This document shows positions 11,071-59,833 of a stretch of DNA of 64,000 nucleotides, piece by piece. The notes under the pieces were generated by a model. That model did no database searches. It was not told the DNA's origin and saw nothing but the letters and a program-made list of their open reading frames with translations. The translations under genes were made by a program, and so were the position numbers. Every line of letters starts with the position of its first letter. The stretch's first letter is position 1. The stretch lies in the NCBI GenBank assembly GCA_038874655.1, contig JAVZBY010000004.1, positions 11,116-75,115 on the forward strand, given 5' to 3'. This stretch comes from Candidatus Woesearchaeota archaeon. GTDB taxonomy: Archaea; Nanobdellota; Nanobdellia; Woesearchaeales; GW2011-AR15.

Positions 11071-12405
11071 TTGAGAATGCAAGAAAATGTTGATTTATTA
11101 GGTTTGGAAGGTTTAGGAAGAATTGCTCTTTTAGGATTATCAATAAGAGGACATTTACAACAAGGCCATATTGAAGGTGCATTAGGTTTTCTATCTAAAA
11201 ATTTAAACCTTCTAAAACAATATCCGGATTTCAAAAAATTCAAATTTTCTAGCTTTGATGAAAATTTTAAACCACCTTATGCAAATATTACACCTTTTGA
11301 TATTTTATTTTCCTTATACTCAAACAACATAATTCCTTATGAACCAAATCAAATTTTTAAAGAAATGCAAAGGCAAATAGATGAAGTTTTTATGTTTGTT
11401 TTAAAATTAGTAGATTCTATTTCAAATTATGACAATTATAGAGGACAAAGAATAAAATTTCTTGAAAGCGATGGGAAAACACCTTTGTTTGGGCTAACTG
11501 ATTTGTTAGAATATGAAATAACTCAACCTGAACAAGCAATGGCTTTTTTGACATGCTTTGGATGGGGTCTTGGAAAGATGGATTCTTTTGAGCATAGATA
11601 TAATACAGGATTGCCTTTTGGCGGTGGCATTAATCTACCTATTAATTTGGAAAATTTACCAAATGGAAAAAATAATATCTGGCATGATGTCATAACATTA
11701 AGCCTAATTCATTTGCCAGAAGAATTAGGGATAATACAACCACCTAATTTAGAAAAATTAATGAAACTTTTTAATTATAAAATTTTAAAACCACTTCAAG
11801 AGATTGGATTAATTCAAAACGAAGCTGTACAAGGTCCTAATACTCTAGATGGCTATGTTAGAATATTAAGAGGTCCAGGAAGTGCTGATTTTATGTCATA
11901 TGTTTTTTCTTGGATCATTTATGGCCCTTATGGAGGGTTAGGAATGAGAGTTGCTGATTTTTGGGACACTGCTGAACAAATTTCATCAAAAATCGTCTAT
12001 GGGGGTCAAGACAACCTAGCATATGAGGAATTATTAAAATTACCAAAATTTAAAGAACTAATTGATTCTAATAAACCGTTAGATTTAGCACTTTCAAAAT
12101 GGTCTTTTGAAGACCCAAAAGCTAGATTTAAACCAATTGAAAGTTGTAGTGAAAGATATTTTTTGCAGGGATATAATAGTATTAGAGGCCCATTTAATAC
12201 AATAATCACACAATATAACTTTTTAAAACATTTACCTGAACAATTTAATAGAGGAAGCGTTGAAAGATCAATACCTCAATTCCCTGTTGGTTTTGGAAGA
12301 GCTTCCTCCAGAGGCTATTTTGATTATATACTACAAAGACTACATGAATTTAATAACTTAGGGATAATTCCAAATTGGTCATATTTTGCAAAAGTGCTTA
12401 ATTAA
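11071..12405 (+). CDS. Hypothetical protein; start codon uncertain
   Basis: Long ORF. The frame stays open back to 10975, and a strong SD (10964..10971) sits about 100 nt upstream of the first TTG/ATG. No recognisable domain. Confidence 0.4.
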   Translation: MRMQENVDLLGLEGLGRIALLGLSIRGHLQQGHIEGALGFLSKNLNLLKQYPDFKKFKFSSFDENFKPPYANITPFDILFSLYSNNIIPYEPNQIFKEMQRQIDEVFMFVLKLVDSISNYDNYRGQRIKFLESDGKTPLFGLTDLLEYEITQPEQAMAFLTCFGWGLGKMDSFEHRYNTGLPFGGGINLPINLENLPNGKNNIWHDVITLSLIHLPEELGIIQPPNLEKLMKLFNYKILKPLQEIGLIQNEAVQGPNTLDGYVRILRGPGSADFMSYVFSWIIYGPYGGLGMRVADFWDTAEQISSKIVYGGQDNLAYEELLKLPKFKELIDSNKPLDLALSKWSFEDPKARFKPIESCSERYFLQGYNSIRGPFNTIITQYNFLKHLPEQFNRGSVERSIPQFPVGFGRASSRGYFDYILQRLHEFNNLGIIPNWSYFAKVLN

Positions 12406-21147: not shown

Positions 21148-22956
21148 TTGGATGAAAAATTGAATAAAAAAAAAGAAACTTCACTCTTGTATTTAGTTGG
21201 ATTTATATTTTTATTAGATATAAATATAGTTTTAGCACAATCATCTGGACAAAGTTTTGTTAGAGCATTAAATCCTTTCTGGAATTTAATTTCATATATA
21301 TTTAAAGATTTACTACAACCCTCTACAAGGTACATATTTTTTAAATTTTTAGTTTGGATGCTATTATGGATTTTTTTAATGCTACTAGCTCCAAAAGCAT
21401 TAGAATCTTTAAAAGCTGACAATGACACAGCAAAAAAACAAGCAAACATAATTACATTTATTCTAGCTTTAATAATGACAATTGGAATTCCTAATGCTGC
21501 ATTAGAGTTAATTTTTAGTTCTTATGCTTTTTTAGGTTTTCTTTTTATTATGTTTATAGGACCAGCACTTTTTATAGGTGGTAAAACGCCACAAAATAAC
21601 TTTGCTAGAGGAGGAATTTTTATATTAATTGGAATAATAATATATGCTTATGATAGTTTTGCTTCAAATTTAAGTGATATTTTTATCTTAGGAGCAACTT
21701 TATCTATAATATATGGGATAATAATGTGGATTAATGGCTTATCCATAGGTGGATCTTTAACAGGAATAAGTAAAAAAGAGCCCAGTAATCCAAAAGATCC
21801 AATAACAAATAAAGAAATAGAACAAGAAAAAGACTCTGAATTAAAAAAATTAAAACAAGAGATTAAAGCACTTTTTGAGTTAAATAGGGAATTTTCAAAA
21901 GATGTTGAGGTAATTCAAAATAATGTTTCAGATTTAAGAAAGAAAAATATATTATCATTAAAAAGAGAATTAAATCTAGAGCAAAAGAAACAAAGATTAA
22001 ATAATGTAGAAGCTCAATTTTCTGTTCCTTTAGAAAAGGTTAATCCTATTATTCAAATTATACAAAACATAAAACAAAATCCAAAATTTTCACAATTAGG
22101 CTTTTTTGACAAAAAAAAACCTATGTCCGGGTTTGATAATGTCGTAAAGTCATTTATAATTAATTATAAAATTCTTATTAGCTTATTAAGAGATTATGCA
22201 CTTTATAAAGGCGAGTTATTAAGTGAAAAAGAAGAAAATTTACATAACATATTAAAAGAACATATTGATAAATTAAAAAAAACTTTTGAGATTGTTGGAA
22301 AAACAGCTGATTCTGAAACATTAAAATTAGAAGCACAAATAAATAATTTAGAAAATGAGATTGTTGCGGCAATACAAAAAGGAAAAAAGCAGAAAAAAGA
22401 GAAATTGCTGAAATTAATAAGTGATTTAGAAAATGATTTCAATAATATGGACACAGAATTAAAAAATTATGGCTCTTTAATTGATAGTGAAATCAAAAAG
22501 ATTAATGAATATATTAATGCTGATGATTTAAGAAAAAACCAGATCATATCCGAAATAAAAAATAATTTAAGTAAATTCCAAAATGCTTTTAACTCTGGTT
22601 TGAGATATTTAAGAAATATGACAAGAAAAGGCATTAAAGAAGAAAAAAAATTTCATCAGAAAATTATCGAAATAAAAGATTATGCTAATTATTTAGAAAA
22701 TGATGATTTAAAAATTGAAAATGCTTACAACACTTGGATTGCATGGGTTAAAGAAATAGAAGAAGAGCTAAAAAAATTAGATGAAATAAATAAAAAAATT
22801 AAAACAATAAACTATGAAGCAGATCTTATAAATTTATTTAAGCAAGAAGAACAATTATTATCAAAATTTTATCAATCAATCCAAAAGTCAGAAAGTGTAT
22901 GCAAAGCATTATTAGAAGGCTATAGAAAATTAGCCAATGAAGTTCAAAATTTATAA
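21148..22956 (+). CDS. Signal peptide plus multi-TM N-domain plus long coiled-coil protein (paralogue 1)
   Basis: TTG start. Signal peptide ending VLAQSS. About 200 aa with four or five TM helices, then ~400 aa of coiled-coil-like K/E/N-rich heptads. The N-domain aligns to the next gene. Confidence 0.5.
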   Translation: MDEKLNKKKETSLLYLVGFIFLLDINIVLAQSSGQSFVRALNPFWNLISYIFKDLLQPSTRYIFFKFLVWMLLWIFLMLLAPKALESLKADNDTAKKQANIITFILALIMTIGIPNAALELIFSSYAFLGFLFIMFIGPALFIGGKTPQNNFARGGIFILIGIIIYAYDSFASNLSDIFILGATLSIIYGIIMWINGLSIGGSLTGISKKEPSNPKDPITNKEIEQEKDSELKKLKQEIKALFELNREFSKDVEVIQNNVSDLRKKNILSLKRELNLEQKKQRLNNVEAQFSVPLEKVNPIIQIIQNIKQNPKFSQLGFFDKKKPMSGFDNVVKSFIINYKILISLLRDYALYKGELLSEKEENLHNILKEHIDKLKKTFEIVGKTADSETLKLEAQINNLENEIVAAIQKGKKQKKEKLLKLISDLENDFNNMDTELKNYGSLIDSEIKKINEYINADDLRKNQIISEIKNNLSKFQNAFNSGLRYLRNMTRKGIKEEKKFHQKIIEIKDYANYLENDDLKIENAYNTWIAWVKEIEEELKKLDEINKKIKTINYEADLINLFKQEEQLLSKFYQSIQKSESVCKALLEGYRKLANEVQNL

Positions 22957-22976: not shown

Positions 22977-24548
22977 ATGCTAAAAGAACAAAAAAAGATT
23001 TTAAAATTTTCATTTTTATTATTGGTTGGTTTCTTAATTATAGATTTTGTCAGTGCTCAAACCACATATAGAGCATTAAAACCTTTTTGGGATTTTATTG
23101 CTTATATATTCAGTGTTTTACCTAGTGGCACAACAAAGTATGTCTTTTATAAATTTATTATTTGGATGTTATTAGCTTCTGTTTTAATATTACTAGTTCC
23201 AAATTCATTAGCTTTTTTGAGATCAGAAGATCCAACAGTAAAAAAGAATGCAAAAATTATTGCTTGGATTTTATCATTAATGATGTCAATTGGAATTCCA
23301 AATTCTATATTAGATTTAATTTTCAATTCTTATTCCCTTATTGGTGCATTTTTATTGTTAGCTGTTGGTCCTGCTTTAATATTTGCACTCACAAACAAAA
23401 GTAATAGAAGATTAAGAGGAATTGCTTTTTTAGTTTCTGGTGTTTTATTAATGATATTCGCTACTACAGGAACAGTTAATGAATGGCTAAATTTATGGGA
23501 TTTACTAGACTGGATTAATCTTGGTGGTTTCATAATGATGATTATAGGATTAGTAATGATAATACAAGGTGATGAAAAAACTATTACTAATGATGAACTA
23601 AATAGTTCTAATTCCTCAAATAATGATTATAATCAAAATCCAATTCAAAATCATGAAACATTTGAAAAAGAAAAAGCAAAAAACTCTTTGCATCTGATTG
23701 ATGAAATATTAAATGAGATTAATGAATTTAATAATAAATTAGTTGAGAAAATTAGCTTAATTGAAAATGAAATTAACGATTATAGAAATGAAATAAAAAT
23801 ATTAGAAGAATTACTCCAAAAAATAAAAGAATTAAAAGAAAGAATATCACATGTTTCAATTATAAATGATCACCTTTCTGATGAAAAAGCAATAAAGGGA
23901 TTGAAAGAAGAAATAGAAAATAAATTAAATTTAGGTTCTGGACACAATATAACAACTGCTATTAGAGATTTAAAAACATTAGAAAAACATTTATCAACAA
24001 TAGATCAACATATTGTTGAATTACAAAGAAAACAAAATACATTGATAACAAAATCTAAAAATAATTTATGGAATGTTGATAATTCATTAGAAGGACAAAC
24101 TTCAAATCAAGATTTAGCTAATCTAATACAAGAAACAAGACACTTAATTAGAGATATAGTATCAAAAATTGATCAAATAAAAAAAATAGAGCATTTGAAT
24201 GAAAGAGCAGAATCCCAAATAATAGAACAAAATAGAAATGAGATTATACAAGGGAGTAATATAGATAGTTTAATTAATGCTATAAAAACATTATGTGATG
24301 AAGTTATAAATAAGAAAAATAATAATAAATTAAATTCATTAAAAACAAATATAACCCATTTACTACATTTTTTAGAAACACAACCAAATCATAGTTCTCC
24401 TGGAGGTAAAATAGCACATAAATTAAGAATACATGAAACCTTACAACAAATATCAAGAAATATAAATGAAGAAGGTAAAATATCAGATGAAATAATAAAT
24501 GAACTAAATCAATTAAAGCAACAACTACAAGTAATTTCTAAGGAATAA
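22977..24548 (+). CDS. Signal peptide plus multi-TM N-domain plus long coiled-coil protein (paralogue 2)
   Basis: Signal peptide ending VSAQTT. The N-domain matches paralogue 1 (RALxPFW, KYxFxKFxxWMLL, MxIGIPNxxLxLIF, GPAL). Coiled-coil C-terminal region. Confidence 0.5.
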   Translation: MLKEQKKILKFSFLLLVGFLIIDFVSAQTTYRALKPFWDFIAYIFSVLPSGTTKYVFYKFIIWMLLASVLILLVPNSLAFLRSEDPTVKKNAKIIAWILSLMMSIGIPNSILDLIFNSYSLIGAFLLLAVGPALIFALTNKSNRRLRGIAFLVSGVLLMIFATTGTVNEWLNLWDLLDWINLGGFIMMIIGLVMIIQGDEKTITNDELNSSNSSNNDYNQNPIQNHETFEKEKAKNSLHLIDEILNEINEFNNKLVEKISLIENEINDYRNEIKILEELLQKIKELKERISHVSIINDHLSDEKAIKGLKEEIENKLNLGSGHNITTAIRDLKTLEKHLSTIDQHIVELQRKQNTLITKSKNNLWNVDNSLEGQTSNQDLANLIQETRHLIRDIVSKIDQIKKIEHLNERAESQIIEQNRNEIIQGSNIDSLINAIKTLCDEVINKKNNNKLNSLKTNITHLLHFLETQPNHSSPGGKIAHKLRIHETLQQISRNINEEGKISDEIINELNQLKQQLQVISKE

Positions 24549-29740: not shown

Positions 29741-30532
29741 TTAATTTTTTAGTTTATTTTCAACTAACTTTATTTCAATATCCCCAAACTGAACCTCTTG
29801 TAATAAATCAATTTTTCTTTGAAAATCCAAATGCAATAAAGGAATAAAAGTAAATACTTTTTCCTCTTTTGTATTATCTGGTAATAAATGCTCAAATTTT
29901 AATTTTGCCTCTTTATTATTTTTTTTGAAAAAAGAAATGATCTTATTATATACATCTTTTATAACTAAGCTAATATCTCTCGGTTTTTCAGGAGCTTTTA
30001 CTTCAGGCTGATTCACAATTTTAGCAGGTCTTCTTTGATAAACTTCTAAAGCCTTTTCTAATGCCTTAACTAAATCAAAAACACTTACTTTTCTTTTTCT
30101 TGGCTGAGGTGTTCTTGGATACAATGTTGGTTTTTCACTTAATTCATTAAAATTATAACTACTTATATCAATAGCACCATTCTCATAATTAACCAATTCT
30201 TCAAAAGGAACCTCATCATTAGAATTTGCACTTGCTATTAAAGCATCTAACGCACTAATATCCTCTTCTAAAAACCTATATGACTTAACTCTTAGCATTA
30301 TTGCTGCAGCCAATAAAACTTTTCCAGAAATCTTTAAATCCATTTCTTTTAATTTTTTTAATCTCTCTAAAAACTTATTTGCCAATAAAGAAACATCAAT
30401 ATCCCAAGGATCCATTTTCTCAGAACTTACTAAATCATAAATCATAGATTGCCATGTAATCTCATCATTATTAAAAAGAATATTAAAAATCTGCTCATTT
30501 GATTTTAACTCTGGATTAATGGCTTCTAACAT
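29741..30532 (-). CDS. scpA: Segregation and condensation protein A (ScpA, kleisin)
   Basis: Conserved N-terminal ScpA block DPWDIDVSLLANKFLERLKK and LLAAAIMLRVKS. Confidence 0.65.
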   Translation of the reverse strand: MLEAINPELKSNEQIFNILFNNDEITWQSMIYDLVSSEKMDPWDIDVSLLANKFLERLKKLKEMDLKISGKVLLAAAIMLRVKSYRFLEEDISALDALIASANSNDEVPFEELVNYENGAIDISSYNFNELSEKPTLYPRTPQPRKRKVSVFDLVKALEKALEVYQRRPAKIVNQPEVKAPEKPRDISLVIKDVYNKIISFFKKNNKEAKLKFEHLLPDNTKEEKVFTFIPLLHLDFQRKIDLLQEVQFGDIEIKLVENKLKN

Positions 30533-30654: not shown

Positions 30655-32232
30655 ATGTTAATGGCAAATTATTTTAAAAAATTTGTATCTTTTAAGATTA
30701 AAAGCAGAAATGTAAATTTATATTTTTCCATTCCAAAAAATAGTTCTGAATTTAATGAAGACTTACTAAATAAAGAATTTGAATTTTTTAAATCCATTTT
30801 ATTAAAACAGCATCCTTTTTTTCAAGATAATAAATTTAAAAATAATTTTGACTTAGCAACTTTGCCTAGAGATAATGAAGCTGAAGAAGAAGAAAGACTA
30901 TTAGCAAAGGATATTTTGCAACTAAAATTAAATTTTAAATATGTAAAAAATATAAATGAAATTAAAGCACCTTCAATAAAATATTTTGAAGAAAAAACTA
31001 TCATGCTTTTAGCACCTTTAATTGGACAAATATTAAAGAGTGATAATAATGTTATTCCTGATGGAGAAGGGGATTTCACAGTAAAAGTTAAAATTGGTAA
31101 AGCTATGGATTTAGGTGAAGAAAATTTAGCTATTGTTTATGAAACGCTCTCTGATTTAGAAACCTTATATCTAGGCTTTCATTATCAATTAATTGCAAGA
31201 TATCTAGTTTTTCCCTATTATCTTAGTGGTGAAAAAACATTTTTTAGTGCCTTTCCTATAAAATGTATAATACATGAGATTCAACATTATAAACAAATGA
31301 CTTTTACTAATTGGGAAAGAAAAGTAAAAAATGCCATAGAAGAAAAATTTACTACTCCTTCTAAATTAAGTCCAAATTCATTATTATTATTTTGGGCCTT
31401 ATGTGAATTATACAAAGAAGCTGAAGCATATTTCATGGATTCAAAAAAAAATCAAAGAAGAAAAATAGACATGAATTGGATCTATAATTTCAGAAAAAAT
31501 TTATTCACTATGGTCTCTCTTCCCAAAAATGAAAAAGAATTATGGGAATTTTATAACAAATATATCGATGAAAACACCTCTTTATATGTTAATGCTCTAT
31601 TAATGATGGCTACAATCTCTTTTGCTGAAGCAAAAAAAGATGGTCATCCTGAACAAATAATCTTATATAAAGATGTCAATCCAGAAATAAAAAAATTAGT
31701 TAATGAAATTGAAGTTATGATAAATGTTCTTTTAAATAATAATAGTGAGAATCTAAATCTTTTAAAAAATAAGATAATTGAATTATACAAATTACTAAAA
31801 CCTTACCTTCCTTATCTAATCGCTAACAAATTAAGAGAAAATATAAATAATCTCTATAATAATAATTTAACAATAATAAAAAAAGGATGCTTAATTATTA
31901 AAAATGAAGTTTTACCTTTTTATGATAGATTTGATTTGTCTAAATTAAATGAGATCATGACAAAAGAAAAAATATTTTATTATGGCCAAGTTCCTGAAAT
32001 TTATGTTAATAGAAGTTTTAATTTTGTAAAAAATTATGTTACATCTACTGGTAAATTATCTCCTGCAACACATTTCGGTTTTATAAAGAAATATGAAGAT
32101 GCATGCAACATTTTAAGAATAGACAGAAACAATAGAGTAATTGATTTATTTTTTTATAAAGAATTAAAAAAATTGACTCTCGAAAAAGATAAAAAAATGT
32201 CAGAACAAAAAGAGGCATATTTATTAGGATAA
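30655..32232 (+). CDS. Hypothetical protein with an HExxH motif
   Basis: 525 aa with no signal peptide. The only candidate catalytic motif is IIHEIQH. Confidence 0.35.
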   Translation: MLMANYFKKFVSFKIKSRNVNLYFSIPKNSSEFNEDLLNKEFEFFKSILLKQHPFFQDNKFKNNFDLATLPRDNEAEEEERLLAKDILQLKLNFKYVKNINEIKAPSIKYFEEKTIMLLAPLIGQILKSDNNVIPDGEGDFTVKVKIGKAMDLGEENLAIVYETLSDLETLYLGFHYQLIARYLVFPYYLSGEKTFFSAFPIKCIIHEIQHYKQMTFTNWERKVKNAIEEKFTTPSKLSPNSLLLFWALCELYKEAEAYFMDSKKNQRRKIDMNWIYNFRKNLFTMVSLPKNEKELWEFYNKYIDENTSLYVNALLMMATISFAEAKKDGHPEQIILYKDVNPEIKKLVNEIEVMINVLLNNNSENLNLLKNKIIELYKLLKPYLPYLIANKLRENINNLYNNNLTIIKKGCLIIKNEVLPFYDRFDLSKLNEIMTKEKIFYYGQVPEIYVNRSFNFVKNYVTSTGKLSPATHFGFIKKYEDACNILRIDRNNRVIDLFFYKELKKLTLEKDKKMSEQKEAYLLG

Positions 32233-32265: not shown

Positions 32266-33648
32266 TTAATTTTTTAGTTCATCTTCAAATATCTTATATA
32301 ATCTCTTCTTGAATTTCAAAGGTATTGTTCTAGAATCATGAATTCCGTAATATTTCTTTTTTAATTCCTCTGCTCTTGGTTCTACACTTTTTAATAATTC
32401 TCTTTTAAATTTATCTATTAGTTCTCCTTTAAAACCATTCTTATAAGCCAAGTAAAATGCATATAATTGCTCTTCTGAACCACAACCTGAAGCATCATAA
32501 CCGACAGAACAACCTTCTTTTTTTTCAACACCAAAACAAGAAAATAAATGCTCGTTTTCTTTAACTAACATGTCAGTCCTAAACCCAATACTTTTCGGAT
32601 CTAGATTATTAGCTAACATAAAAATATAAATTCTAGCACACTTAGAGCAATGCTCACACCAATAATGCTTTTTTCCATATTCATTTTCATCTGGAAAACA
32701 AGACATTTGATATTTACCAATTTCTTTATATCTCTTGTGAAGAATTTTCATAATAGCTAACTCATACAAAGGTTCAATAAAACTTGACACATTCATTCCT
32801 GTTAATAAAAAAGCCATATTATCCATTTCTTTTACCCAAAAACTTGTTTGATCATATACAGGATAACTTAAATATCCATCTTTATTAATATAAGTATCAT
32901 CGCAACTTTTTTCATCACCAAATAAAATATATTTTGCTTTTTCATAATAAGCTATGGGCATTATATCAAAGAAAAGTTCTGTCATTAAATGACCATATCC
33001 TAACTCTGTTCTAGGTAATTTCCAAAACCTATAATCATGAATTACACCTGTACTATTTTCAAAAGTATAAACCTTGACATTAAATTCTTTGGAAAATTTT
33101 TTAATTAATTCCTTTTTATATTCATTTTCTAATTTAACTGCATTATCTAACATAAAAACAGGAATTGGCTCTAAACCTAATTCTTTTGCTAGTGCAAATG
33201 TCAATAAACTATCTTTACCAAAAGACATATTTACTATTACTTTTTCTTTCAGATCAATCTTTTCTTTTGGATACTTTATTTCATAATTAGCAAAAGAAAC
33301 CTTCAAATTCAAAAAATTTTTAATTTGTAATTCTGTTGAAACATTATCTACATCAGCACAAAAACTTAAATTGTTTAAATGTGCATTAAATATTTGTTGT
33401 TTAAATAAAGGATAAGAAGTTTTAAATTCAATCTCTTTTAAATTTGAATTAGAAAATTTCCAATTTTGACTTAACATCTGTGGTAAGTGCAAAACTTTTA
33501 GATATGCATAATTATCAATAAAAATATCTTTGAGATATTCTGGATAATTATCCCATATATCTTTAGAATAAACTAAAAAAAAATCTTTTTCATCTATTGT
33601 TAATTTTAAACCATTATCTGTTTTTTTACAATCAACTTTCATTTTCAC
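32266..33648 (-). CDS. PP-loop ATP pyrophosphatase superfamily protein (PAPS-reductase/QueC-like) with C-x15-C-x2-C-x2-C motif, paralogue A
   Basis: MSFGKDSLLTFALA P-loop of the SGGKDS type. YQMSC..WCEHCSKCARIY cysteine cluster. Aligns along its whole length with the ORF at 35786..37183. Confidence 0.5.
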   Translation of the reverse strand: MKMKVDCKKTDNGLKLTIDEKDFFLVYSKDIWDNYPEYLKDIFIDNYAYLKVLHLPQMLSQNWKFSNSNLKEIEFKTSYPLFKQQIFNAHLNNLSFCADVDNVSTELQIKNFLNLKVSFANYEIKYPKEKIDLKEKVIVNMSFGKDSLLTFALAKELGLEPIPVFMLDNAVKLENEYKKELIKKFSKEFNVKVYTFENSTGVIHDYRFWKLPRTELGYGHLMTELFFDIMPIAYYEKAKYILFGDEKSCDDTYINKDGYLSYPVYDQTSFWVKEMDNMAFLLTGMNVSSFIEPLYELAIMKILHKRYKEIGKYQMSCFPDENEYGKKHYWCEHCSKCARIYIFMLANNLDPKSIGFRTDMLVKENEHLFSCFGVEKKEGCSVGYDASGCGSEEQLYAFYLAYKNGFKGELIDKFKRELLKSVEPRAEELKKKYYGIHDSRTIPLKFKKRLYKIFEDELKN

Positions 33649-33704: not shown

Positions 33705-34787
33705 CTACCTTCTCAACAAATTATCATTTCTTAACTCAGCACTTAATTCTTTTAATAATCCATATCTTTTCATTGCTTCATATAGAATGCTTAAAATAAT
33801 ATCATCATAACTCATTCCTGCTGTAAAACATGCTTTTGGAAATCTTGAATTTTCCAAAGGATCTGGCATCAATCCAGGCAATGCATTAATCTCTAAAACA
33901 TTCGGAATTCCATTTTTATCCAATCTTATATCTAATCTTGCTAAATCCACACATCCTAAAACTTTAAATGTTTTCAAAGAAACAGCTTTTATCATTCTTT
34001 CTAATTCTTTTGAAATTTGTGCTGGACAAACTACAGGATCAACTGGATTATTTGGATTATCCCAAATCCATTTAACCTCATAAGAATCAAACTTATTAAC
34101 ATGTTCTGGTAAATAATCAAAAGTCACTTCTACAATTGGCATTACTTTTGGAGGATTATTTCCCAATATTGCTACTGTAAATTCTCTACCCTCTAAATAT
34201 TCTTCAACTAAAGCTTCTTGATGATAATTATTTATAACAAATCTTAATTGTCTTCTTAATTCCTCTTCGTTCTTTACTAATGAATCATTTCTTATTCCTT
34301 TTGATGAACCTTCTGCATTTGGTTTTACAAAAAGAGGAAAATTTAACTCTGGATTTAATTTTTGATTCCAATTACTAAAAATCTGAAATTTTGGTGTTGG
34401 AACTCCATAATATTGTAAAATTTCCTTTGTTCTTCTTTTGTCCAAAGTTAAAGCTTGAGTAAAAACACCACTTCCAGTATAAGGTATTCCGAGCATATCT
34501 AAAATAGCAGGAACTTGACTTTCTCGAGAACCTCCATTTAAACCTTCAGCTATATTAAAAACAAAATCATAATTACCATATTTAATTTTTTCAAAAAAAT
34601 CTTCATTTGCCTCAACAATTTCAGCAATAAAACCCTTTTTTTCTAATGCATTTTTAATTGCAGTTGGAACTGCCAAATTATCATACTCAGCATAATAATC
34701 TTCTGGCATATTTGCAGGTGGCTCTTTTTTTAAATTAAAAGCAACTGCAATTCTTGGTATAGGGTTTTTAAAAACAAACTTTTTCAT
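33705..34787 (-). CDS. ddl: D-alanine--D-alanine ligase family ATP-grasp enzyme
   Basis: NIAEGLNGGSRESQVPAILDMLGIPYTGSGV..LDKRRTKEIL parallels the DdlB block [43 protein letters not shown]. C-terminal LEINALPGL ATP-grasp motif. Confidence 0.75.
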   Translation of the reverse strand: MKKFVFKNPIPRIAVAFNLKKEPPANMPEDYYAEYDNLAVPTAIKNALEKKGFIAEIVEANEDFFEKIKYGNYDFVFNIAEGLNGGSRESQVPAILDMLGIPYTGSGVFTQALTLDKRRTKEILQYYGVPTPKFQIFSNWNQKLNPELNFPLFVKPNAEGSSKGIRNDSLVKNEEELRRQLRFVINNYHQEALVEEYLEGREFTVAILGNNPPKVMPIVEVTFDYLPEHVNKFDSYEVKWIWDNPNNPVDPVVCPAQISKELERMIKAVSLKTFKVLGCVDLARLDIRLDKNGIPNVLEINALPGLMPDPLENSRFPKACFTAGMSYDDIILSILYEAMKRYGLLKELSAELRNDNLLRR

Positions 34788-34812: not shown

Positions 34813-35154
34813 TTAAAAATACTTATCCTCTATTTTAGTATTATTTATAATAGCATTAATTATTAAAAAAAATCTTTTAAAATGAGAATAAAAAACAAAA
34901 AATAAAATCAAAATAATTGTAAAAAGAAAAAAAATCTCTAACAAAATAGGATTAAACCCTTTATTAAGGATACTCAATCTATCTCTAAAAAACTGATTAA
35001 CAAAAAATTGACTATAAAAAAGATTTAAATTTAATAAAATTAGAAAATTATAAAATAGACTTGAATTTAAAAATCTAGAATTTAAACTAAACTTTATCAA
35101 ACCTTTTTTAAAAGAATCAATCCTGAAAGACAAACTCAATTGCCTATTTATCAT
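34813..35154 (-). CDS. Small hypothetical membrane protein
   Basis: 113 aa with two predicted TM segments. Lies between the ligase and the acidic peptide gene. Confidence 0.3.
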   Translation of the reverse strand: MINRQLSLSFRIDSFKKGLIKFSLNSRFLNSSLFYNFLILLNLNLFYSQFFVNQFFRDRLSILNKGFNPILLEIFFLFTIILILFFVFYSHFKRFFLIINAIINNTKIEDKYF

Positions 35155-35342: not shown

Positions 35343-35543
35343 TTAATACTTATCCTCATCATCTTCATAATCTTCGTAATCTTCGTCATCATAGTCTTCA
35401 TCATCATAGTCTTCATCATTATAGTCTTCATCATCATAGTCTTCATCATAATCTTCATCGCTATACTCTTCGTCATCATATTCTTCGTCATCATATTCTT
35501 CAACAAAATCTTCATCTTCATAATCTTCTTCGTGTCTAGCCAT
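35343..35543 (-). CDS. 66-aa poly-acidic Tyr-repeat peptide (D/E-x-D/E-Y tandem repeats)
   Basis: SD GGAGGT 4 nt upstream of ATG 35543. Sequence MARHEEDYEDEDFVEEYDDEEYDDEEYSDEDYDEDYDDEDYNDEDYDDEDYDDEDYEDYEDDEDKY. Coded by 15-bp tandem DNA repeats. Confidence 0.5.
   Translation of the reverse strand: MARHEEDYEDEDFVEEYDDEEYDDEEYSDEDYDEDYDDEDYNDEDYDDEDYDDEDYEDYEDDEDKY
35360..35520 (-). repeat. Imperfect tandem array of a 15-bp unit (catcatagtcttcat family) within the acidic peptide CDS
   Basis: At least four near-perfect consecutive copies over 35387..35450, with degenerate copies on either side. Confidence 0.6.
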
Positions 35544-35785: not shown

Positions 35786-37183
35786 ATGGATGAGCTTTCT
35801 ATAAAATACAGCATATCAAAAAAAGGATTTAATGTAAGAATAAATAATAAAACCTATTCAATAAAATATCCGCAAATAATTTGGGAAACTTTCCCAAAAA
35901 AAATTAAAAAAATAACAATTGAAAATTTTGTTTTTTTAACTACATTTACATTACCAATGCTCTTAAATAAAAGAAAAGCATTTTTTCACATGAATTCTCC
36001 TTTATTAGGAAGTTTTTTTGTTAAACCAATTTTATATTATATCCCTGCATGTGCTGATGAATATAACAGAGATAGCTTTACATTACTAAAAAGGTTTATA
36101 AACTCCACTTATGATTTTAAATCTTATAACCCAACTTTTTTTGATTATAATCCTAAAGTTAATTACAGAAGTGTTCATTTATTCACATTTGGAAAAGATA
36201 GCTTGCTTTCTTATTGCTTAGCAGAAGAATTGAAATTAAATCCTATTTTATTATATGTCGAAGAGCCTGACACAGCATATAAAGATAAAAATGGAAAAAT
36301 AAAAAAAACATATGAAAACAAGCACAAAGACATATTAATAAAAAAATTTAGTGAAGAATTTAAAAAACCTATTTATAAGATAAAACATCAATTAAGCTTA
36401 ACAAGAGAAGCTCCTCACTTAGGTGTTGATGAACCTGAATTACCTTATGGCTCTCAATTAACTGAATATGCTCTATTAACTATTCCCTTTAACCATTACT
36501 TTAAAGCAAAATACATGGTATATGGGAATGAAGCAAGCTGTTCAAGTACTTATGTAAATAAAGAAGGCTTTATAACAAACCCTGTTTATGATCAATCCGG
36601 TGAATGGGTAGTTGAAATTTCTAAGGTTTTGAAAGTATTGACAAAAAAAATGTCAGCAATTTCTTTAATAGAACCAATCCATGAATTATTAATCACAAAA
36701 ATTTTACACACTAGATATCCAAAGCATGCTAAATATCAGATGTCTTGTATGGCAGCAAACAATTATGCAAAATATTCAAGATGGTGTCATAATTGTTCAA
36801 AATGCGCTAGAATGTATGTTTTTTTAAAAGCATTTAATATTGATGTTAAATCCGTAGGTTTTAAAGAAGATATGTTCAAAAAAGAAAAAATGCATTTTTA
36901 CACTTTATTTGGTAAACCTGAAGAAAATGCATTACCTTATGATTTAGCAGGAGTTGGCAGAGATGAAATGTTATTAGCTTTTTATTTATCTTACAAAAAT
37001 GGTTCAAAAGGTTATTTGATTAAAGAATTTGAAAGAAAATTTTTAAAAGAAGCTGAACAAAGAAAAAATGAACTTTATAAAGAATTTTTCAGCATTCATG
37101 AATCTTTAACAATACCAAAAAGAATGCACAAAAAAATAATTAACATATTTAAAGAAGAAATAGAAAAACTAAATTTACCATAA
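35786..37183 (+). CDS. PP-loop ATP pyrophosphatase superfamily protein with C-x15-C-x2-C-x2-C motif, paralogue B
   Basis: LFTFGKDSLLSYCLA P-loop and YQMSC..WCHNCSKCARMY. Shared blocks with the 32266 ORF: PVYDQ, IEPxxELxIxKILH, AFYLxYKNGxKG. Confidence 0.5.
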   Translation: MDELSIKYSISKKGFNVRINNKTYSIKYPQIIWETFPKKIKKITIENFVFLTTFTLPMLLNKRKAFFHMNSPLLGSFFVKPILYYIPACADEYNRDSFTLLKRFINSTYDFKSYNPTFFDYNPKVNYRSVHLFTFGKDSLLSYCLAEELKLNPILLYVEEPDTAYKDKNGKIKKTYENKHKDILIKKFSEEFKKPIYKIKHQLSLTREAPHLGVDEPELPYGSQLTEYALLTIPFNHYFKAKYMVYGNEASCSSTYVNKEGFITNPVYDQSGEWVVEISKVLKVLTKKMSAISLIEPIHELLITKILHTRYPKHAKYQMSCMAANNYAKYSRWCHNCSKCARMYVFLKAFNIDVKSVGFKEDMFKKEKMHFYTLFGKPEENALPYDLAGVGRDEMLLAFYLSYKNGSKGYLIKEFERKFLKEAEQRKNELYKEFFSIHESLTIPKRMHKKIINIFKEEIEKLNLP

Positions 37184-37276: not shown

Positions 37277-38290
37277 ATGAAATTAATCAAAGTAAAAGGG
37301 ACTAATTATCAAATTGGTTATAAATTAGGCCACATATTTTCCTCTGCAATAAAATATAGAATAAAAAAATTTAAAATAACTAAAAGATTAATTGATTCTA
37401 AAAAAGATTATTTAGAAAAAACTTTAAAACTCTGTGAAATATACCCTAATTACTTACTTGAATTAAAAGGAATTTCTGATGGCTCTAATACAAATATTTA
37501 TGAAATTTTAATGCTTAATTTACTAGGATTACTTGATATAAAAAGATGTAGCACAATAGCATATAAAGGAAAAAATAGTTTTATTGCTCATAATGAAGAT
37601 GGGGACACTTTTGAAAGAAAAAAAGATTTTGCATTAATAAAATATGAAAAAATAATTAATGAAATAGAATACAAAAATAAAAATAATAAAAAAAACAAAA
37701 AATTTTATTTTTACTCATACTTTTATCCTGGTGAACTTTTAGGAGCAACATTTTCATGGAATTCTTATGGTTTAATAATAACTGTTAATTCAATAAGGTC
37801 TAGATTAAGCAATATTCCAAAACTGCCAAGAGTTTTTGTAGCAAGAGCACTATTAGAAGCAAAAACAATAAATCAAGCAATTAAAATAATAAAAAATTCA
37901 AAAAGCTCTGGTGGCTTGCATTATCTTATAATGAAAAAAACAAATAAAAAATCAAACAATGTAAAAGAAATAGTTTCAATAGAAAGATATCAGAATTCTA
38001 CTAGTATTGAAAAAATAAATAACATTTATATTCATACTAATCACTATATTCACAAAAAATTTCTAAATAAAACAAAGCCACATAAAAATTCTGTAATAAG
38101 ATATGAAAGATTAAAAGAATTAATAGAACTGCATAGAGATAAAATAATAAATGCAGATAAAGAAATTCTTTTAAAAATTATGAGAGATAGAAAAACAAAG
38201 CCAAACTCAATATACAACAAAAAAAATGATACCAATCAAACTCTTGCTACTTTTATAGCTTTGAAAAATAAAAAATATGTATTTTTATAA
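37277..38290 (+). CDS. Peptidase C45 / acyl-CoA:6-APA acyltransferase-like Ntn hydrolase
   Basis: N-terminal G.NYQIGYKLGH. Candidate nucleophile in KRCSTIAYKGKN, followed by IAHNEDGD, as in the C45/choloylglycine-hydrolase superfamily. Confidence 0.5.
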   Translation: MKLIKVKGTNYQIGYKLGHIFSSAIKYRIKKFKITKRLIDSKKDYLEKTLKLCEIYPNYLLELKGISDGSNTNIYEILMLNLLGLLDIKRCSTIAYKGKNSFIAHNEDGDTFERKKDFALIKYEKIINEIEYKNKNNKKNKKFYFYSYFYPGELLGATFSWNSYGLIITVNSIRSRLSNIPKLPRVFVARALLEAKTINQAIKIIKNSKSSGGLHYLIMKKTNKKSNNVKEIVSIERYQNSTSIEKINNIYIHTNHYIHKKFLNKTKPHKNSVIRYERLKELIELHRDKIINADKEILLKIMRDRKTKPNSIYNKKNDTNQTLATFIALKNKKYVFL

Positions 38291-38326: not shown

Positions 38327-40090
38327 TTAAAAATTAATTAAAGGTATTATATCTGAAATTTTTAACTTTTTTCTTGTAATTAATAATCTAGCAAAAAAGA
38401 ACAACAAAAAAAAGAAAAATATTATCAAAGTTTCTTTTACTAAAAACATTAAATTTAGTTCATTCAATAAAATTAAATCTCTTAACAAAGAGATTCCATG
38501 TGTCATTGGCATAAAAGGTGATATAAATTGAAAAAACCCTGGAGAAGTTTCAATTGGAAAAGTTCCTGCTCCAGAAGTAAGTTGAAGCATCAATAAAATT
38601 ATAGCAATGATTTGTCCTATTTTTCCAAATAAAACCATAACAAATTGAATTATAGCTAAAAATGTCCATGATAAAAATACTGTATAAATTAAAAAAAGTA
38701 AAATATTTTTAGGTTGTAATCCTATAAAAAGAATTAATGAAAAATCCAAAATTAATGCTTGTAATAAAGCCAAAATTGCTGGAAAAATTGATTTGCCTAA
38801 TGTAATAGAAAAATCTGAAAATTTTGAAATAATTAAACTATTATCTCTCTGATTTACAAATATCATAATAATTAACGCACCAACCCACAATGCAAGTAAT
38901 ATAAAATAAGGAGATAATGCTTCTCCATAAGTTTCTGCATTATCTTTACTTACATCAATGACAATAACAGGATTAAACAACATTTCTGATTTTTCCCTTA
39001 TTTTCTGTTCAGAAAAATCCTTTTTCAAATTATCACTTGCTTTTGCTAATTCTGAACTCAACTCATTTGAACCGTAATAAGACAACTTTATTCCATTTTC
39101 TAAAGTTGAAATACCTCTTTCTAATTTTCTAGAACCCTCTCTTAATTTTTGGCTTCCTTCATAAATCTTCTCTAAATTTTCACTTAACTTATATGAGCTT
39201 AAATAAACCTCATTATGCGCATTAACAAAAACAGAATTTTGTTTTTTCAAAAATTCCATTTTTAATTTATAACTAGGATCTATTACACCTTTATCTGCCA
39301 ATGAAGAGATTAAAACAGATAATTCATCTATATTTGAAGAAAATTGTTTGCTTCCTTCATATAATCTTTTATTTGCCTCTGCTAATTTTTCTGAACCATC
39401 TTTTACTTTATTTAAATAAAAACTTATATCTTCAATCCCTTCACTTAATTGATTACTTCCTTCTTTTAAAAGATTGCTTCCTGACTTTAATTTTTTAATT
39501 CCATTGCTTAAATCAGTTGAAACATCAGAAGCTTCAGACATATTATTTAGTAAAGATTCTGAAATTGGAATAATTTCATCTACATACTTATCTCTTATTT
39601 TTTCCTTCAAAGAATTATTTAACTCTTTAACTATTTCAAAACTTATTCTAGAACCTAAAAAATTATTAACATCTCTTTTCTCAAAAAATATTTCTGCTTT
39701 AACTGGCTCTTCTTTTATAGAAAAAACATTTTTAGTAAAATCTTTTGGTATAATTATAATTCCATAATATTTCTTATTATATAATCCGCTCATAGCTTCA
39801 TCATAATTAATAAAATAAAAATTAAAGTCCTTATTTTTCATTTCATCAATTAGCTCATCACCTAAATTTCTGTAATCACCATTATAAATATAACCTAAAT
39901 CTTGATTAACAACTGCTATTGGTAAATTTTTAACATTTCCATAAGGATCCCAAAAAGCCCATAAATAAAGAAAACCATAAATTAAAGGAATAAGTAAAAT
40001 AACAATTATAGCCAAAATCTTAAAAGGATCTCTTAAATATTTTTTAATTTCTGAAATTGCAATAAATAAGCTATCTTTCATTATAAACAC
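38327..40090 (-). CDS. YhgE/Pip-domain membrane protein (ABC-2 type permease with a large extracytoplasmic helical repeat domain)
   Basis: N-terminal TM helix. Extracellular region with repeated L..GS..L.EGS heptad-like units. C-terminal cluster of five TM helices typical of ABC-2. Confidence 0.65.
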   Translation of the reverse strand: MFIMKDSLFIAISEIKKYLRDPFKILAIIVILLIPLIYGFLYLWAFWDPYGNVKNLPIAVVNQDLGYIYNGDYRNLGDELIDEMKNKDFNFYFINYDEAMSGLYNKKYYGIIIIPKDFTKNVFSIKEEPVKAEIFFEKRDVNNFLGSRISFEIVKELNNSLKEKIRDKYVDEIIPISESLLNNMSEASDVSTDLSNGIKKLKSGSNLLKEGSNQLSEGIEDISFYLNKVKDGSEKLAEANKRLYEGSKQFSSNIDELSVLISSLADKGVIDPSYKLKMEFLKKQNSVFVNAHNEVYLSSYKLSENLEKIYEGSQKLREGSRKLERGISTLENGIKLSYYGSNELSSELAKASDNLKKDFSEQKIREKSEMLFNPVIVIDVSKDNAETYGEALSPYFILLALWVGALIIMIFVNQRDNSLIISKFSDFSITLGKSIFPAILALLQALILDFSLILFIGLQPKNILLFLIYTVFLSWTFLAIIQFVMVLFGKIGQIIAIILLMLQLTSGAGTFPIETSPGFFQFISPFMPMTHGISLLRDLILLNELNLMFLVKETLIIFFFFLLFFFARLLITRKKLKISDIIPLINF

Positions 40091-40120
40091 CTAATTTATA
40101 CCTTTTGTTTATGTTTAATT

Positions 40121-40810
40121 TTAAATTATGTTTAATTCTCCTTTTTCAATAAAAAGTACTCTATTAGCAATCATTAACTCTTGTTTTCTTTTTGTCGTGA
40201 AAATAAGAGTTTTTTCTTTAATTAAAGGTTCTATCTTTTTCCAAAAAAATATCATATTATCTTCACTCAATTCTTTTGTAATTTCGTCTAATAACAAAAC
40301 TTCTGGATCAGAAATATATGCTATCAAAAAAGATATGAATGCTTTTTCAACAGCACTTAAATCTTTAATACTTTTATTTGATATTTCAAACAATTTCAAA
40401 AAATTTTTTATCTTATCATTAGAAAAGGAAAGTTTTAAGCTTTTAGCATAATATTCAAGAATTTCAAAAATATCAAAATCCTCAAAAATAGGTTTAATAT
40501 TTTCTATAGCTGAAACTCCTATCTTAAGTTTAATATCTGCTTTTTCATAAAAAATAATCTCTCCTTTATGTTCTAAAAAACCTGCCATGCATAAAATTAA
40601 TAAGGTTTTTCCACTCCCAGAATCACCATAAATTGCAATTTTTTCTTTTTCAAAAACTTCAAATGAAATACCCTTTAGTAGTGGTTTATTAAAAAAATAT
40701 AAACTTAGATTATTTACTTGTAAAATTCTTTTTCTAGTTAAGTTATCTTTTTTAAAATTGAAATAATACTTTGATTTATTCTCTATATTTAACATAATAA
40801 AAGAGAACAA
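40121..40810 (-). CDS. ABC transporter ATPase-like protein with a degenerate signature motif
   Basis: Walker A GDSGSGKT and Walker B LLLDE are intact. The LSGGQ position reads LSAVEKAF. Adjacent to the YhgE permease. Confidence 0.55.
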   Translation of the reverse strand: MFSFIMLNIENKSKYYFNFKKDNLTRKRILQVNNLSLYFFNKPLLKGISFEVFEKEKIAIYGDSGSGKTLLILCMAGFLEHKGEIIFYEKADIKLKIGVSAIENIKPIFEDFDIFEILEYYAKSLKLSFSNDKIKNFLKLFEISNKSIKDLSAVEKAFISFLIAYISDPEVLLLDEITKELSEDNMIFFWKKIEPLIKEKTLIFTTKRKQELMIANRVLFIEKGELNII

Positions 40811-58528: not shown

Positions 58529-59833
58529 TCAAATTATCAACTTACAGACTCTGTTTTCATCTAATGATTTAAATTTTCTAAATTCATCTAAAAAATATAA
58601 AGCTAAACTACGCAGTTTAAGAATATCTAAAAGCAAATTAGTATGTTTCTCTTTTAATAATTTGTTAATATCTAATATTAAAAACTTAGGTGATGAGTCT
58701 TTATAGCGATTTATTCGATATTCTATATAGTTTTTTAATTCTGATTCATCAATTCCTTCATCATTAGGAATTTCTAAAAGATTCAATATTTCCTCAAGAT
58801 TTTTAATTCCAATACCACATAACTTCCCATATAAAGAACTCAACTCTACTGTATCCATGCCTAACCATTTTTCTTTTACTTTTTCAGAACTTTTAGAAAG
58901 AACGATTTTCATTCTCCTATTAAAACGAAATAAAAAATAGTCAATAGTTTGAATTATTAATAAAAGTTTAAACGCATCCTTACATATATTAAATCTAGCT
59001 TTTTTTATTTCTTCAGCAGTCCCATATTTTGGTTTTGAATTTGTATTATCCCATTTATCATATCCCTTGATTAAAATTAGATAATACCCTGAAAAATCAT
59101 TTATATTTAACTTCTTTGATGCAGAACATAACATCCTTATAATATACTTATTATAACCCACATAGCCTCTATGTGTTAAAGCGTTTAAATAAAATCTTAA
59201 GATTTCTTTCTTCTTTTCTTCCATAATACCTAAATTTTTAATATAGGTATCTATAAATTCTATTAATAATTTATCATAAACTTTTTTTCTTTCACTTCTC
59301 TTTGGATTTAAATCCGAGTCTGTCAATCCCACGAGATCAATTTCTTCTTTAGTTAATTCTTTCCCTTTATAATATTTAATTAAAATTTTATGTTGCGGGG
59401 AGTCTTCAATAGTATCATGACTTAATGCTGCTAAGATTACTAAAAAGTCAGTTGTTCCTAACATTGCTGCTACAGTAATTGGATGAGAAACTACTAAAGC
59501 AGGTCCGTATTTTCTTTTTTTTGGTGAACATTCCTTAAAATCCCAAGAAATTGTAAGTGCTGCACAAGCACTTCTAGCAAGTATAATTTTTTCTAAATCA
59601 CTTAAATGTCTTATATCTATTATTGCATTTAATTGTTCAATAACCTCTTGTAAATCCTCATAACCTAAGTCACTTAAACTTTTAATAGTTCCATTAATTT
59701 GATAATTAAAATTTTTAGAATAGGGTTTAGGCCATAAATCTATATTCAAATGTGATGAAATTAGAAATTTAACTATTTCATAATTTCTCTCAACATTAAT
59801 TCCATAGTTTTGTTTTTGGGAGTAAATATTCAC
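58529..59833 (-). CDS. RelA/SpoT-type HD-domain ((p)ppGpp hydrolase-like) protein
   Basis: HPITVAAMLGTTDFLVILAALSHDTIED and KGYDKWDNTNS align with the SpoT hydrolase blocks HP..VA.IL..DTI.AALLHD.VED and KLADRLHNMRT. No synthetase domain. Confidence 0.5.
   Translation of the reverse strand: MNIYSQKQNYGINVERNYEIVKFLISSHLNIDLWPKPYSKNFNYQINGTIKSLSDLGYEDLQEVIEQLNAIIDIRHLSDLEKIILARSACAALTISWDFKECSPKKRKYGPALVVSHPITVAAMLGTTDFLVILAALSHDTIEDSPQHKILIKYYKGKELTKEEIDLVGLTDSDLNPKRSERKKVYDKLLIEFIDTYIKNLGIMEEKKKEILRFYLNALTHRGYVGYNKYIIRMLCSASKKLNINDFSGYYLILIKGYDKWDNTNSKPKYGTAEEIKKARFNICKDAFKLLLIIQTIDYFLFRFNRRMKIVLSKSSEKVKEKWLGMDTVELSSLYGKLCGIGIKNLEEILNLLEIPNDEGIDESELKNYIEYRINRYKDSSPKFLILDINKLLKEKHTNLLLDILKLRSLALYFLDEFRKFKSLDENRVCKLII

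Follow-up and report, generated by a model that had tools for sequence, protein, structure and literature searches.

A D-Ala-D-Ala ligase-like enzyme beside MurL-like genes in a woesearchaeal genome, and its probable role as an amide ligase of another pathway

The ligase, its fold and its active site

The subject of this report is a gene in a 64-kb stretch of a Candidatus Woesearchaeota contig (JAVZBY010000004.1; hereafter the window, whose positions serve as coordinates). It encodes an ATP-grasp ligase resembling Ddl, the D-Ala-D-Ala ligase, and shares its neighbourhood with two genes for MurL-like enzymes, a small polyacidic open reading frame (ORF), a C45-family gene, and an ABC-2 transporter pair (Table 1). 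A first-pass annotation had called the product a bona fide member of the D-Ala-D-Ala ligase family, either horizontally acquired and repurposed or a member, alongside its neighbours, of a non-canonical peptide pathway, and it is to the last of these alternatives that the evidence points. We place the enzyme in a distinct sister family of D-Ala-D-Ala ligase, not among the D-Ala-D-Ala synthetases.

The gene starts with ATG, nine bases ahead of which stands a GGAGGT Shine-Dalgarno-like motif, and the local G+C content of 0.23–0.25 equals the window average. An archaeal host had been deduced earlier and was borne out by the genes for TFB, TFS, Nre, aEF1-alpha, aEF2, aIF2-gamma, Cbf5, and NOG1 in the window, which also encodes FtsZ. 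An exact-sequence look-up of the ligase protein returned no record, and genomic context was therefore taken from homologues; the protein encoded next to the ligase matches, at 100% identity, a "hypothetical protein" from a metagenome-assembled genome (MAG) of Candidatus Woesearchaeota.

The peptide strings on which the first-pass annotation had leaned, NIAEGLNGGSRESQVPAILDMLGIPYTGSGVFTQALTLDKRRTKEIL and LEINALPGL, are both present in the translation. Escherichia coli DdlB (PDB entries 1iov and 2dln) aligned collinearly over residues 43–335 at 1e-30, and the best sequence matches among solved structures were all D-Ala-D-Ala ligases. No other Pfam profile came near Dala_Dala_lig_C (PF07478; E = 6.9e-38; 130.6 bits, cut-off 24), the other matches being to generic ATP-grasp families only (GARS_A, ATP-grasp_3/4; 1e-3 to 4e-5). 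RimK, LysX, and CarB, the families raised earlier as competing assignments, gave no Pfam match at E 0.01 or better. An AlphaFold2 model of the ligase, made with 18 relatives, reached a pLDDT of 85 and a pTM of 0.86, and its top 50 Foldseek matches in the PDB were all Ddl, with TM-scores of 0.7–0.85. As judged from the sequence and this model, the product is an intact ATP-grasp enzyme with a Ddl-type three-domain fold.

The Ddl-superfamily part of the original call thus stood; the bona fide Ddl part did not, in view of the curated cut-offs and of the residues at the substrate sites. The protein scored 199.7 bits with NCBIfam model NF002378 (cut-off 243) and 167.7 bits with TIGR01205 (cut-off 245.65), and fell far under every cut-off of the NCBIfam equivalog models for Ddl, VanA, VanB, and VanG. 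For single residues it was aligned with a DdlB sequence that agrees with residues 25–302 of the database match. The residues for ATP, Mg2+, and the acyl phosphate are kept (DdlB/window: K97/K117, K144/K155, K215/K239, R255/R284, D257/D286, E270/E299, N272/N301, and G276/G305), as are E15/E34, S150-S151/S161-S162, and S281/S314. DdlB residues K97, K144, E180, K215, R255, D257, E270, N272, and G276 are kept both in the window protein and in 82 sequences of family A, a family that we define here as aminomutase-associated Ddl-like ligases. With these ATP, Mg2+, and acyl-phosphate residues conserved, the ligase should be catalytically competent.

The positions expected to set substrate specificity are altered, reading (DdlB to window protein) V18D (D36), H63E (E81), E68R (R88), Y216W (W240), and L282R (R315). 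In DdlB, we take E15, S150, and Y216 to form a triad, V18 and H63 to lie around the first D-Ala, and S281 and L282 to lie around the second. Across the 82 family-A members the changes are fixed or nearly so at D36 (78/78), E81 (81/81), R88 (81/81), and W240 (81/82); the L282 position varies, with Cys in bacteria and most Bathyarchaeia and Arg in all other sampled archaea. The omega loop is five residues longer than in DdlB, a four-residue insert precedes S314, and a longer segment takes the place of the glycine-rich N-terminal loop. E34, D36, and E81 take the places of DdlB residues E15, V18, and H63, and the substrate pocket is predicted to exceed that of Ddl in acidity. Substrate-position changes fixed throughout the family, combined with an intact catalytic core, argue for a different substrate rather than for a decayed Ddl.

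A true D-Ala-D-Ala (or D-Ala-D-X) ligase, whose D-dipeptide went into some envelope polymer of the archaeon or served a bacterial host, would account for Ddl being the best family and structural match, for the catalytic residues, E15, S150/S151, and S281 shared with DdlB (EC 6.3.2.4), and for the database name D-alanine--D-alanine ligase. We nevertheless regard it as very improbable: both curated Ddl cut-offs were missed, the changes at V18, H63, E68, Y216, and L282 are family-invariant or near-invariant, and the collinear identity to Ddl is about 30% against 46–93% to members of family A. In addition, no alanine racemase, Mur ligase, or other murein-synthesis (mur/dcw) gene was found among the window ORFs of at least 300 amino acids, the conserved partners described below are an aminomutase, a GNAT protein, and MurL-like proteins rather than murein genes, and the murein-walled bacterial carriers presumably own a separate canonical ddl. 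Enzymes of the VanA, VanB, and VanG type, which make D-Ala-D-Lac or D-Ala-D-Ser, belong to the same superfamily, and the ligase matched them at 1e-22 to 1e-36. Changes in the omega loop and the second-substrate site alter specificity in these enzymes. The matches were weaker than that to DdlB, however, and the gene context is devoid of van genes.

Distribution of family A and the cassette of its relatives

The ligase carries all of the family-A signatures, namely FNIAEG (with E at H63), KFDSYEVKW (with W at Y216), D at V18, and R at E68, and it scored 623 bits with the family-A hidden Markov model (HMM), against 195–330 bits for the paralogous ligase B. The closest database proteins, 50–93% identical, are from Woese-, Nano-, Aenigm-, Alti-, and Bathyarchaeia and Thermoplasmatota, and include those of Lokiarchaeum ossiferum and Promethearchaeum syntrophicum; databases list these relatives as "D-alanine--D-alanine ligase" or as "ATP-grasp domain-containing protein", and archaeal proteins often bear a "Ddl" label there. 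A scan of GTDB with one genome per species, using the motifs FNIAEG and KFDSYEVKW, found motif-confirmed relatives in at least 591 species, both archaeal and bacterial. The bacterial carriers (46–52% identity) include Ignavibacteriota, Melioribacter, Desulfuromonadales/Geobacteraceae, Nitrospinota, Gemmatimonadaceae, and Chlorobiaceae. Metagenome contigs scanned with the ligase protein yielded a single short locus only.

A rough neighbour-joining tree was built from 82 family-A and 70 family-B sequences together with DdlB. Families A and B separated cleanly, and within A the 27 archaeal sequences stood apart from the 55 bacterial ones, with the window gene nested among those of DPANN archaea and not within a bacterial clade. 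This topology and the host-like G+C content argue against a recent acquisition from bacteria. Horizontal acquisition, one alternative of the first-pass annotation, is not supported, the gene lying in an archaeal clade of a family that many archaeal phyla share; a recent bacterial transfer is unlikely, and we rejected it in view of the tree, the identity gradients, and the base composition.

ORFs were called in 88 loci of relatives gathered for comparison (numbered L0xx), clustered, and scored with family HMMs, revealing a recurrent cassette of ligase A, ligase B (about 350 amino acids), a GNAT protein (about 160 amino acids), and a KamA-family radical S-adenosylmethionine/pyridoxal phosphate aminomutase (about 385 amino acids). 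Among 74 GTDB loci with A, B was present in 63 and KamA in 55, both in 48, and a KamA::A fusion in five; many of the loci without the full cassette are cut by contig ends. The gene order is A-B-GNAT-KamA in bacteria, and KamA-A with B on the opposite strand in Bathyarchaeia. Fusions of KamA to A, 700–770 amino acids long, occur in Thermoplasmatales, Methanomethylophilaceae, Hadarchaeota, and one Nanoarchaeia genome, and fusions of B to GNAT, 517–526 amino acids long, in Thermoplasmatales, Methanomethylophilaceae, Hadarchaeota, and Promethearchaeum (Table 1). Gene fusions of this kind are classical evidence that the joined enzymes, KamA and A as well as B and GNAT, share a pathway.

The partner aminomutases were compared with Clostridium lysine 2,3-aminomutase (LAM; PDB entry 2A5H) as the reference. 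All 64 of 64 partners, and that of L090, keep the positions R134, D293, D330, and K337 as well as the CxxxCxxC motif. We take D293 and D330 to bind the epsilon-ammonium group of lysine and to be replaced in glutamate 2,3-aminomutase. Specificity for glutamate or arginine was considered and rejected, since both Asp residues, in the roles assumed here, are invariant. The closest NCBIfam model was AblA, with 458–490 bits, just under its cut-off of 525. The kept LAM positions and the proximity to AblA make beta-lysine the most likely product of the partner aminomutase.

The DPANN locus and its MurL-like genes

DPANN operons combine A with genes for MurL-like PP-loop enzymes in several ways: KamA-A-MurL-like in Aenigmarchaeota (L006), A-MurL-like-KamA in Diapherotrites (L092), and A-MurL-like in L001 and L095; L090 has A-KamA. 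The order in L088 (76% identity) is C45, MurL-like 2, acidic ORF, A, MurL-like 1, GNAT, B, B', and ScpA, where B' denotes a second copy of B; that in L089 is A, MurL-like, GNAT, B, B', and ScpA. The window keeps the frame of C45, MurL-like 2, acidic ORF, A, MurL-like 1, and ScpA (Table 1).

Table 1. Features of the window and gene fusions in relatives' loci
Feature	Position	Strand	Remarks
ScpA	29741..30532	-	Synteny anchor bounding the cassette in the window, L088, L089, and L095
525-amino-acid ORF	30655..32232	+	HExxH motif (IHEIQH), read from the translation; at the place of GNAT-B-B'
MurL-like PP-loop enzyme 1	32266..33648	-	460 amino acids; 56 bp downstream of A, same strand
Ddl-like ATP-grasp ligase, family A	33705..34787	-	360 amino acids; Pfam and PDB matches, conserved catalytic residues
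Polyacidic ORF	35343..35543	-	66 amino acids, MARHEEDYEDED...DYEDDEDKY; upstream of A, same strand
MurL-like PP-loop enzyme 2	35786..37183	+	465 amino acids; divergent from A; paralogue of MurL-like 1
C45-family autoproteolytic Ntn acyltransferase/hydrolase	37277..38290	+	337 amino acids; C45_proenzyme 154 bits (cut-off 85)
ABC-2 permease	38327..40090	-	Pfam ABC2_membrane_3, 1.4e-31
ABC ATPase	40121..40810	-	Pfam ABC_tran, 2.5e-15
KamA::A fusion loci			L008, L009, L010, L012, L013
B::GNAT fusion loci			L002, L009, L010, L012, L013

The two MurL-like proteins of the window are 38% identical to each other, and MurL-like 2 is 58% identical to its same-position orthologue in L088. The MurL model NF041275 was the only family match for 21 of 21 MurL-like members (best E = 7.9e-12), at scores of about 25–40 bits against a cut-off of 700; the match is collinear with the C-terminal half of the model, which has the same length as the proteins. 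Precomputed matches to PF26298 (MurL_epimerase_C), also weak, exist for some homologues. Searched against a Pfam copy without a MurL model, a MurL-like protein gave sub-threshold matches to QueC, PP-loop, and PAPS-reductase families only, and sequence and profile searches found no match among PDB sequences. Fold comparison pointed to a PP-loop fold of the QueC/Cap9 kind, with Cap9 as the best structural match. By these matches, the MurL-like proteins are distant homologues of MurL and not equivalogs.

MurL is described as an enzyme that epimerises a peptide's terminal residue, unidirectionally and at the expense of ATP, and adenylation of the alpha-carboxylate has been proposed for it (PMC8788868). 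Amide formation by QueC and Cap9 depends on the same carboxylate activation. A carboxylate of the ligase product would most likely be adenylated by the MurL-like enzymes. After adenylation, the MurL-like enzymes might thus epimerise, amidate, or ligate, outcomes between which sequence cannot discriminate.

The block GNAT-B-B', present in L088 and L089, is gone both in the window and in L095, whose A is 93% identical; unrelated ORFs lie at its place, the 525-amino-acid ORF of the window showing no homology to the 349-amino-acid ORF of L095. The former has no Pfam or NCBIfam family and, from its HExxH motif, is possibly a metallopeptidase. Together with the missing KamA and the interrupted acidic ORF of L096 described below, this loss could mean that A is a functionless, decaying remnant. 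Comparison of the ligase gene with its L095 copy gave dN = 0.039, dS = 0.86, and a dN/dS of about 0.045, however, and so low a ratio between two lineages both without the block points to strong purifying selection on A even in its absence. Moreover, A is full length with every catalytic residue present, the C45 gene and the two MurL-like genes are likewise intact and keep their synteny, A with a MurL-like gene and nothing else of the cassette also occurs in L001, and the lost genes may sit elsewhere in the genome, of which 64 kb were covered. We therefore judge decay to be extremely unlikely; with A under selection without GNAT-B-B', A and the MurL-like enzymes look like a working unit.

The C45 protein also matched Pfam AAT (5e-29), and its gene is syntenic with that of L088. 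The ABC-2 permease and ATPase genes (38327..40810) are convergent with it. In two unrelated loci, L091 (2867–4953, a gammaproteobacterial MAG) and L093 (4129–5896, a metagenome contig), MurL-like genes likewise have ABC_tran and ABC2_membrane genes beside them; a role of the ABC-2 pair as product exporter is thereby no more than suggested.

The polyacidic ORF of the window consists of 66% Asp and Glu and has GGAGGT ahead of its ATG. Counterparts lie at the same position upstream of A in L088 (9554–9706, 50 amino acids) and L089 (9527–9700, 57 amino acids), both beginning MKKH and ending in W, and an acidic ORF with a final W lies near B in the Bathyarchaeota locus L020 (11171–11293, minus strand). 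About 1.3 Mb of loci contained no strongly acidic small ORF besides these four (40–66 amino acids, 58–66% Asp and Glu). Each of them ends in an aromatic residue (W or Y), against about 10% of small ORFs overall. The counterpart in the 93%-identical relative L096 is interrupted by stop codons, and most loci, including all bacterial ones, have no such ORF. By analogy with LysW and LysX, ribosomal protein S6 and RimK, and the tubulin tail and tubulin tyrosine ligase (TTL), the acidic ORF is a possible substrate or carrier; its membership in the system is uncertain. A search of Rfam for a structured RNA upstream of the ligase gave only sub-threshold matches to C/D-box small RNAs (sR5, 26 bits against a gathering score of 40) at 35388..35462 on the minus strand of the window and at 9617–9680 of L088. 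These lie inside GATGA-rich repeats that code for the acidic ORF, and they are probably spurious.

A and the MurL-like enzymes might modify the polyacidic peptide, adding to or epimerising its C-terminal aromatic residue or decorating its Asp and Glu side chains. On a broader form of this proposal, the Ddl-like ligase, the MurL-like enzymes, the C45 protein, and the ABC-2 exporter would make up a hitherto undescribed DPANN module for building or editing peptides, which would act on or with a ribosomally made polyacidic peptide with a final W or Y. We give the narrower form little weight and think the broader one rather improbable as well. LysX/LysW, RimK/S6, and TTL, or a ribosomally templated cyanophycin-like product, would be precedents, and as in those systems an ATP-grasp gene adjoins a very acidic ORF with a conserved type of C-terminal residue. 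That so rare an ORF, in the window with its own GGAGGT, should recur at the cassette in four loci also speaks for a modified peptide, as does the action of MurL on a C-terminal residue of a peptide and of Cap9, by the title of its PDB entry, on a protein terminus. On the other side, the ORF is low in complexity and patchily present, has no zinc ribbon and no C-terminal Glu, and A lies outside the RimK/LysX family, with faint RimK matches. The model of A shows the compact build of Ddl, omega loop included, its nearest structures use free amino acids, and the KamA fusions likewise point to a free amino-acid substrate. If such a peptide module exists, it would export a product with beta-lysine and/or D-residues made without a racemase, such as a molecule with which the DPANN episymbionts coat their surface or interact with a host.

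Some further ORFs were noted. Directly upstream of the ligase gene, at 34813..35154 on the minus strand, lies a hydrophobic ORF of 113 amino acids, which may encode a small membrane protein or may have arisen by chance in AT-rich DNA. Its short motif DRLS-[IL][IL]-NK-x-F is found again, in the same frame, upstream of A in both L095 and L096. Elsewhere in the window, four large ORFs of 434–602 amino acids (11071..12405, 22977..24548, 58529..59833, and 21148..22956) have no significant Pfam family, the last of them giving a weak DUF7014 match only.

A proposed pathway and its relation to known systems

Taken together, the fold, the altered pocket, and the gene contexts lead us to consider it probable that the window gene encodes a family-A amide ligase, not a Ddl, of a peptide pathway tied to beta-lysine or another cationic amine. 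From the Ddl fold and the complete set of catalytic residues, activation of a carboxylate as acyl phosphate and its coupling to an amine are the predicted chemistry of A. A cationic, beta-lysine-type diamino acid is the most likely candidate for one of its substrates, given the acidic pocket and the relatives that adjoin, or are fused to, a lysine-2,3-aminomutase-type enzyme. In the full cassette, B (two copies in DPANN) and the GNAT protein would extend and cap the product, giving a small, possibly N-acetylated peptide or pseudopeptide that contains beta-lysine. In DPANN archaea, including that of the window, the MurL-like enzymes would adenylate a carboxylate of the product and then either epimerise it, as MurL does, or amidate or ligate it, in the manner of QueC and Cap9; the C45 Ntn hydrolase/acyltransferase and the ABC-2 exporter may process and export the result. 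Of this pathway the window locus encodes the A and MurL-like part only, and beta-lysine would have to be supplied by other parts of the genome or by a host.

Several points weigh against this proposal. None of GNAT, B, B', or KamA was found by tblastn in the 64 kb of the window, and the link of the window gene to beta-lysine is accordingly drawn from its relatives. Seven deltaproteobacterial A-B-GNAT loci (L051, L053, L055, L060, L063, L067, and L072) have no KamA. Directly upstream of the cassette they carry genes for a deoxyhypusine-synthase-like protein, agmatinase, and pyruvoyl arginine decarboxylase, and the Promethearchaeum locus L002 (4087–5687) has deoxyhypusine-synthase-like and pyruvoyl arginine decarboxylase genes 2–3 kb from its A gene; the cationic substrate may be a polyamine or another cationic amine in some lineages. 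The neighbour-joining tree has one Ddl outgroup and no support values, and the roles given to single DdlB and LAM residues are taken over from the structural literature. We found no report in the literature of a characterised member of family A, of family B, or of this MurL-like clade. A literature search for a cassette of KamA and ATP-grasp genes, for archaeal MurL, or for Ddl in DPANN likewise found no relevant report; a paper on pseudomurein pangenomics concerned a different ATP-grasp protein and was set aside.

The cassette resembles several known systems, although none of the resemblances to PylB/PylC, AblA/AblB, or MurD2/MurL amounts to membership. In pyrrolysine biosynthesis, the radical-SAM lysine mutase PylB makes a compound that PylC, an ATP-grasp ligase of Ddl-like type, joins to an amine, and the pairing and fusion of KamA with A may follow the same logic. 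PylB, though, is not known as a KamA-family enzyme; no pylD or pylS lies in the context of the ligase, and no PylC model was among the best 25 of its 44 NCBIfam matches. In Xanthomonas, MurD2 ligates L-Glu and MurL then epimerises this terminal residue, and the window likewise has a ligase with an adjoining MurL homologue of equal length, matched by the MurL model only and with a PP-loop fold compatible with adenylation. The homology is distant, however, the partner ligase is a Ddl-type ATP-grasp enzyme instead of a Mur ligase, no UDP-MurNAc pathway was seen in the host, and amidation or ligation in the manner of QueC and Cap9 is equally compatible with the fold.

The third system, AblA and AblB, makes N-epsilon-acetyl-beta-lysine. 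The cassette aminomutase is closest to AblA, the Asp pair of the lysine site is kept, and a GNAT gene stands alongside; the differences are an AblA score below cut-off, a GNAT protein that is not AblB, two extra ATP-grasp ligases in the cassette, and the absence of both KamA and GNAT from the window. An osmolyte related to N-epsilon-acetyl-beta-lysine, with A and B extending AblA/AblB to a di- or tripeptide solute comparable to that made by Ngg and AsnO (NAGGN), would be a more specific form of the proposed beta-lysine or cationic-amine pathway and not an exclusive alternative to it. In this specific form we find it doubtful, though worth keeping in view. The KamA partners next to AblA and the GNAT always found in the full cassette agree with it, and an adjacent aminomutase/acetyltransferase pair of Pelobacter carbinolicus, the nearest thing to a mention of the cassette that we met in the literature, is annotated as ablA/ablB for this osmolyte (PMC3543383). 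Against a solute stand the GNAT protein's failure to match the AblB model, the sub-threshold AblA scores, and the exporter, C45, and MurL-like partners of DPANN archaea, which misfit a cytoplasmic product. We also counted in its favour the B::GNAT fusion, which presumably unites the same two domain types as Ngg.

The enzyme class is a known one; family A, with its substrate, its cassette, and its MurL-like partners in archaea, is so far uncharacterised. The label "D-alanine--D-alanine ligase" on thousands of relatives wrongly implies murein-type chemistry in wall-less archaea. To our knowledge, the pairing with MurL-like enzymes in DPANN would be the first hint of the ATP-dependent terminal-residue epimerase/adenylase family operating in archaea. 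The cassette spans Asgard archaea, Bathyarchaeia, Thermoplasmatota, Hadarchaeota, DPANN, and several bacterial phyla, and its cultivable carriers, Ignavibacterium album, Melioribacter roseus, Promethearchaeum syntrophicum, and Lokiarchaeum ossiferum, make the question experimentally testable. Novel beta-lysine peptides, osmolytes, conjugates of polyamines, and surface molecules are all candidate products, and identification of the product would give a function to a gene set carried by hundreds of species.

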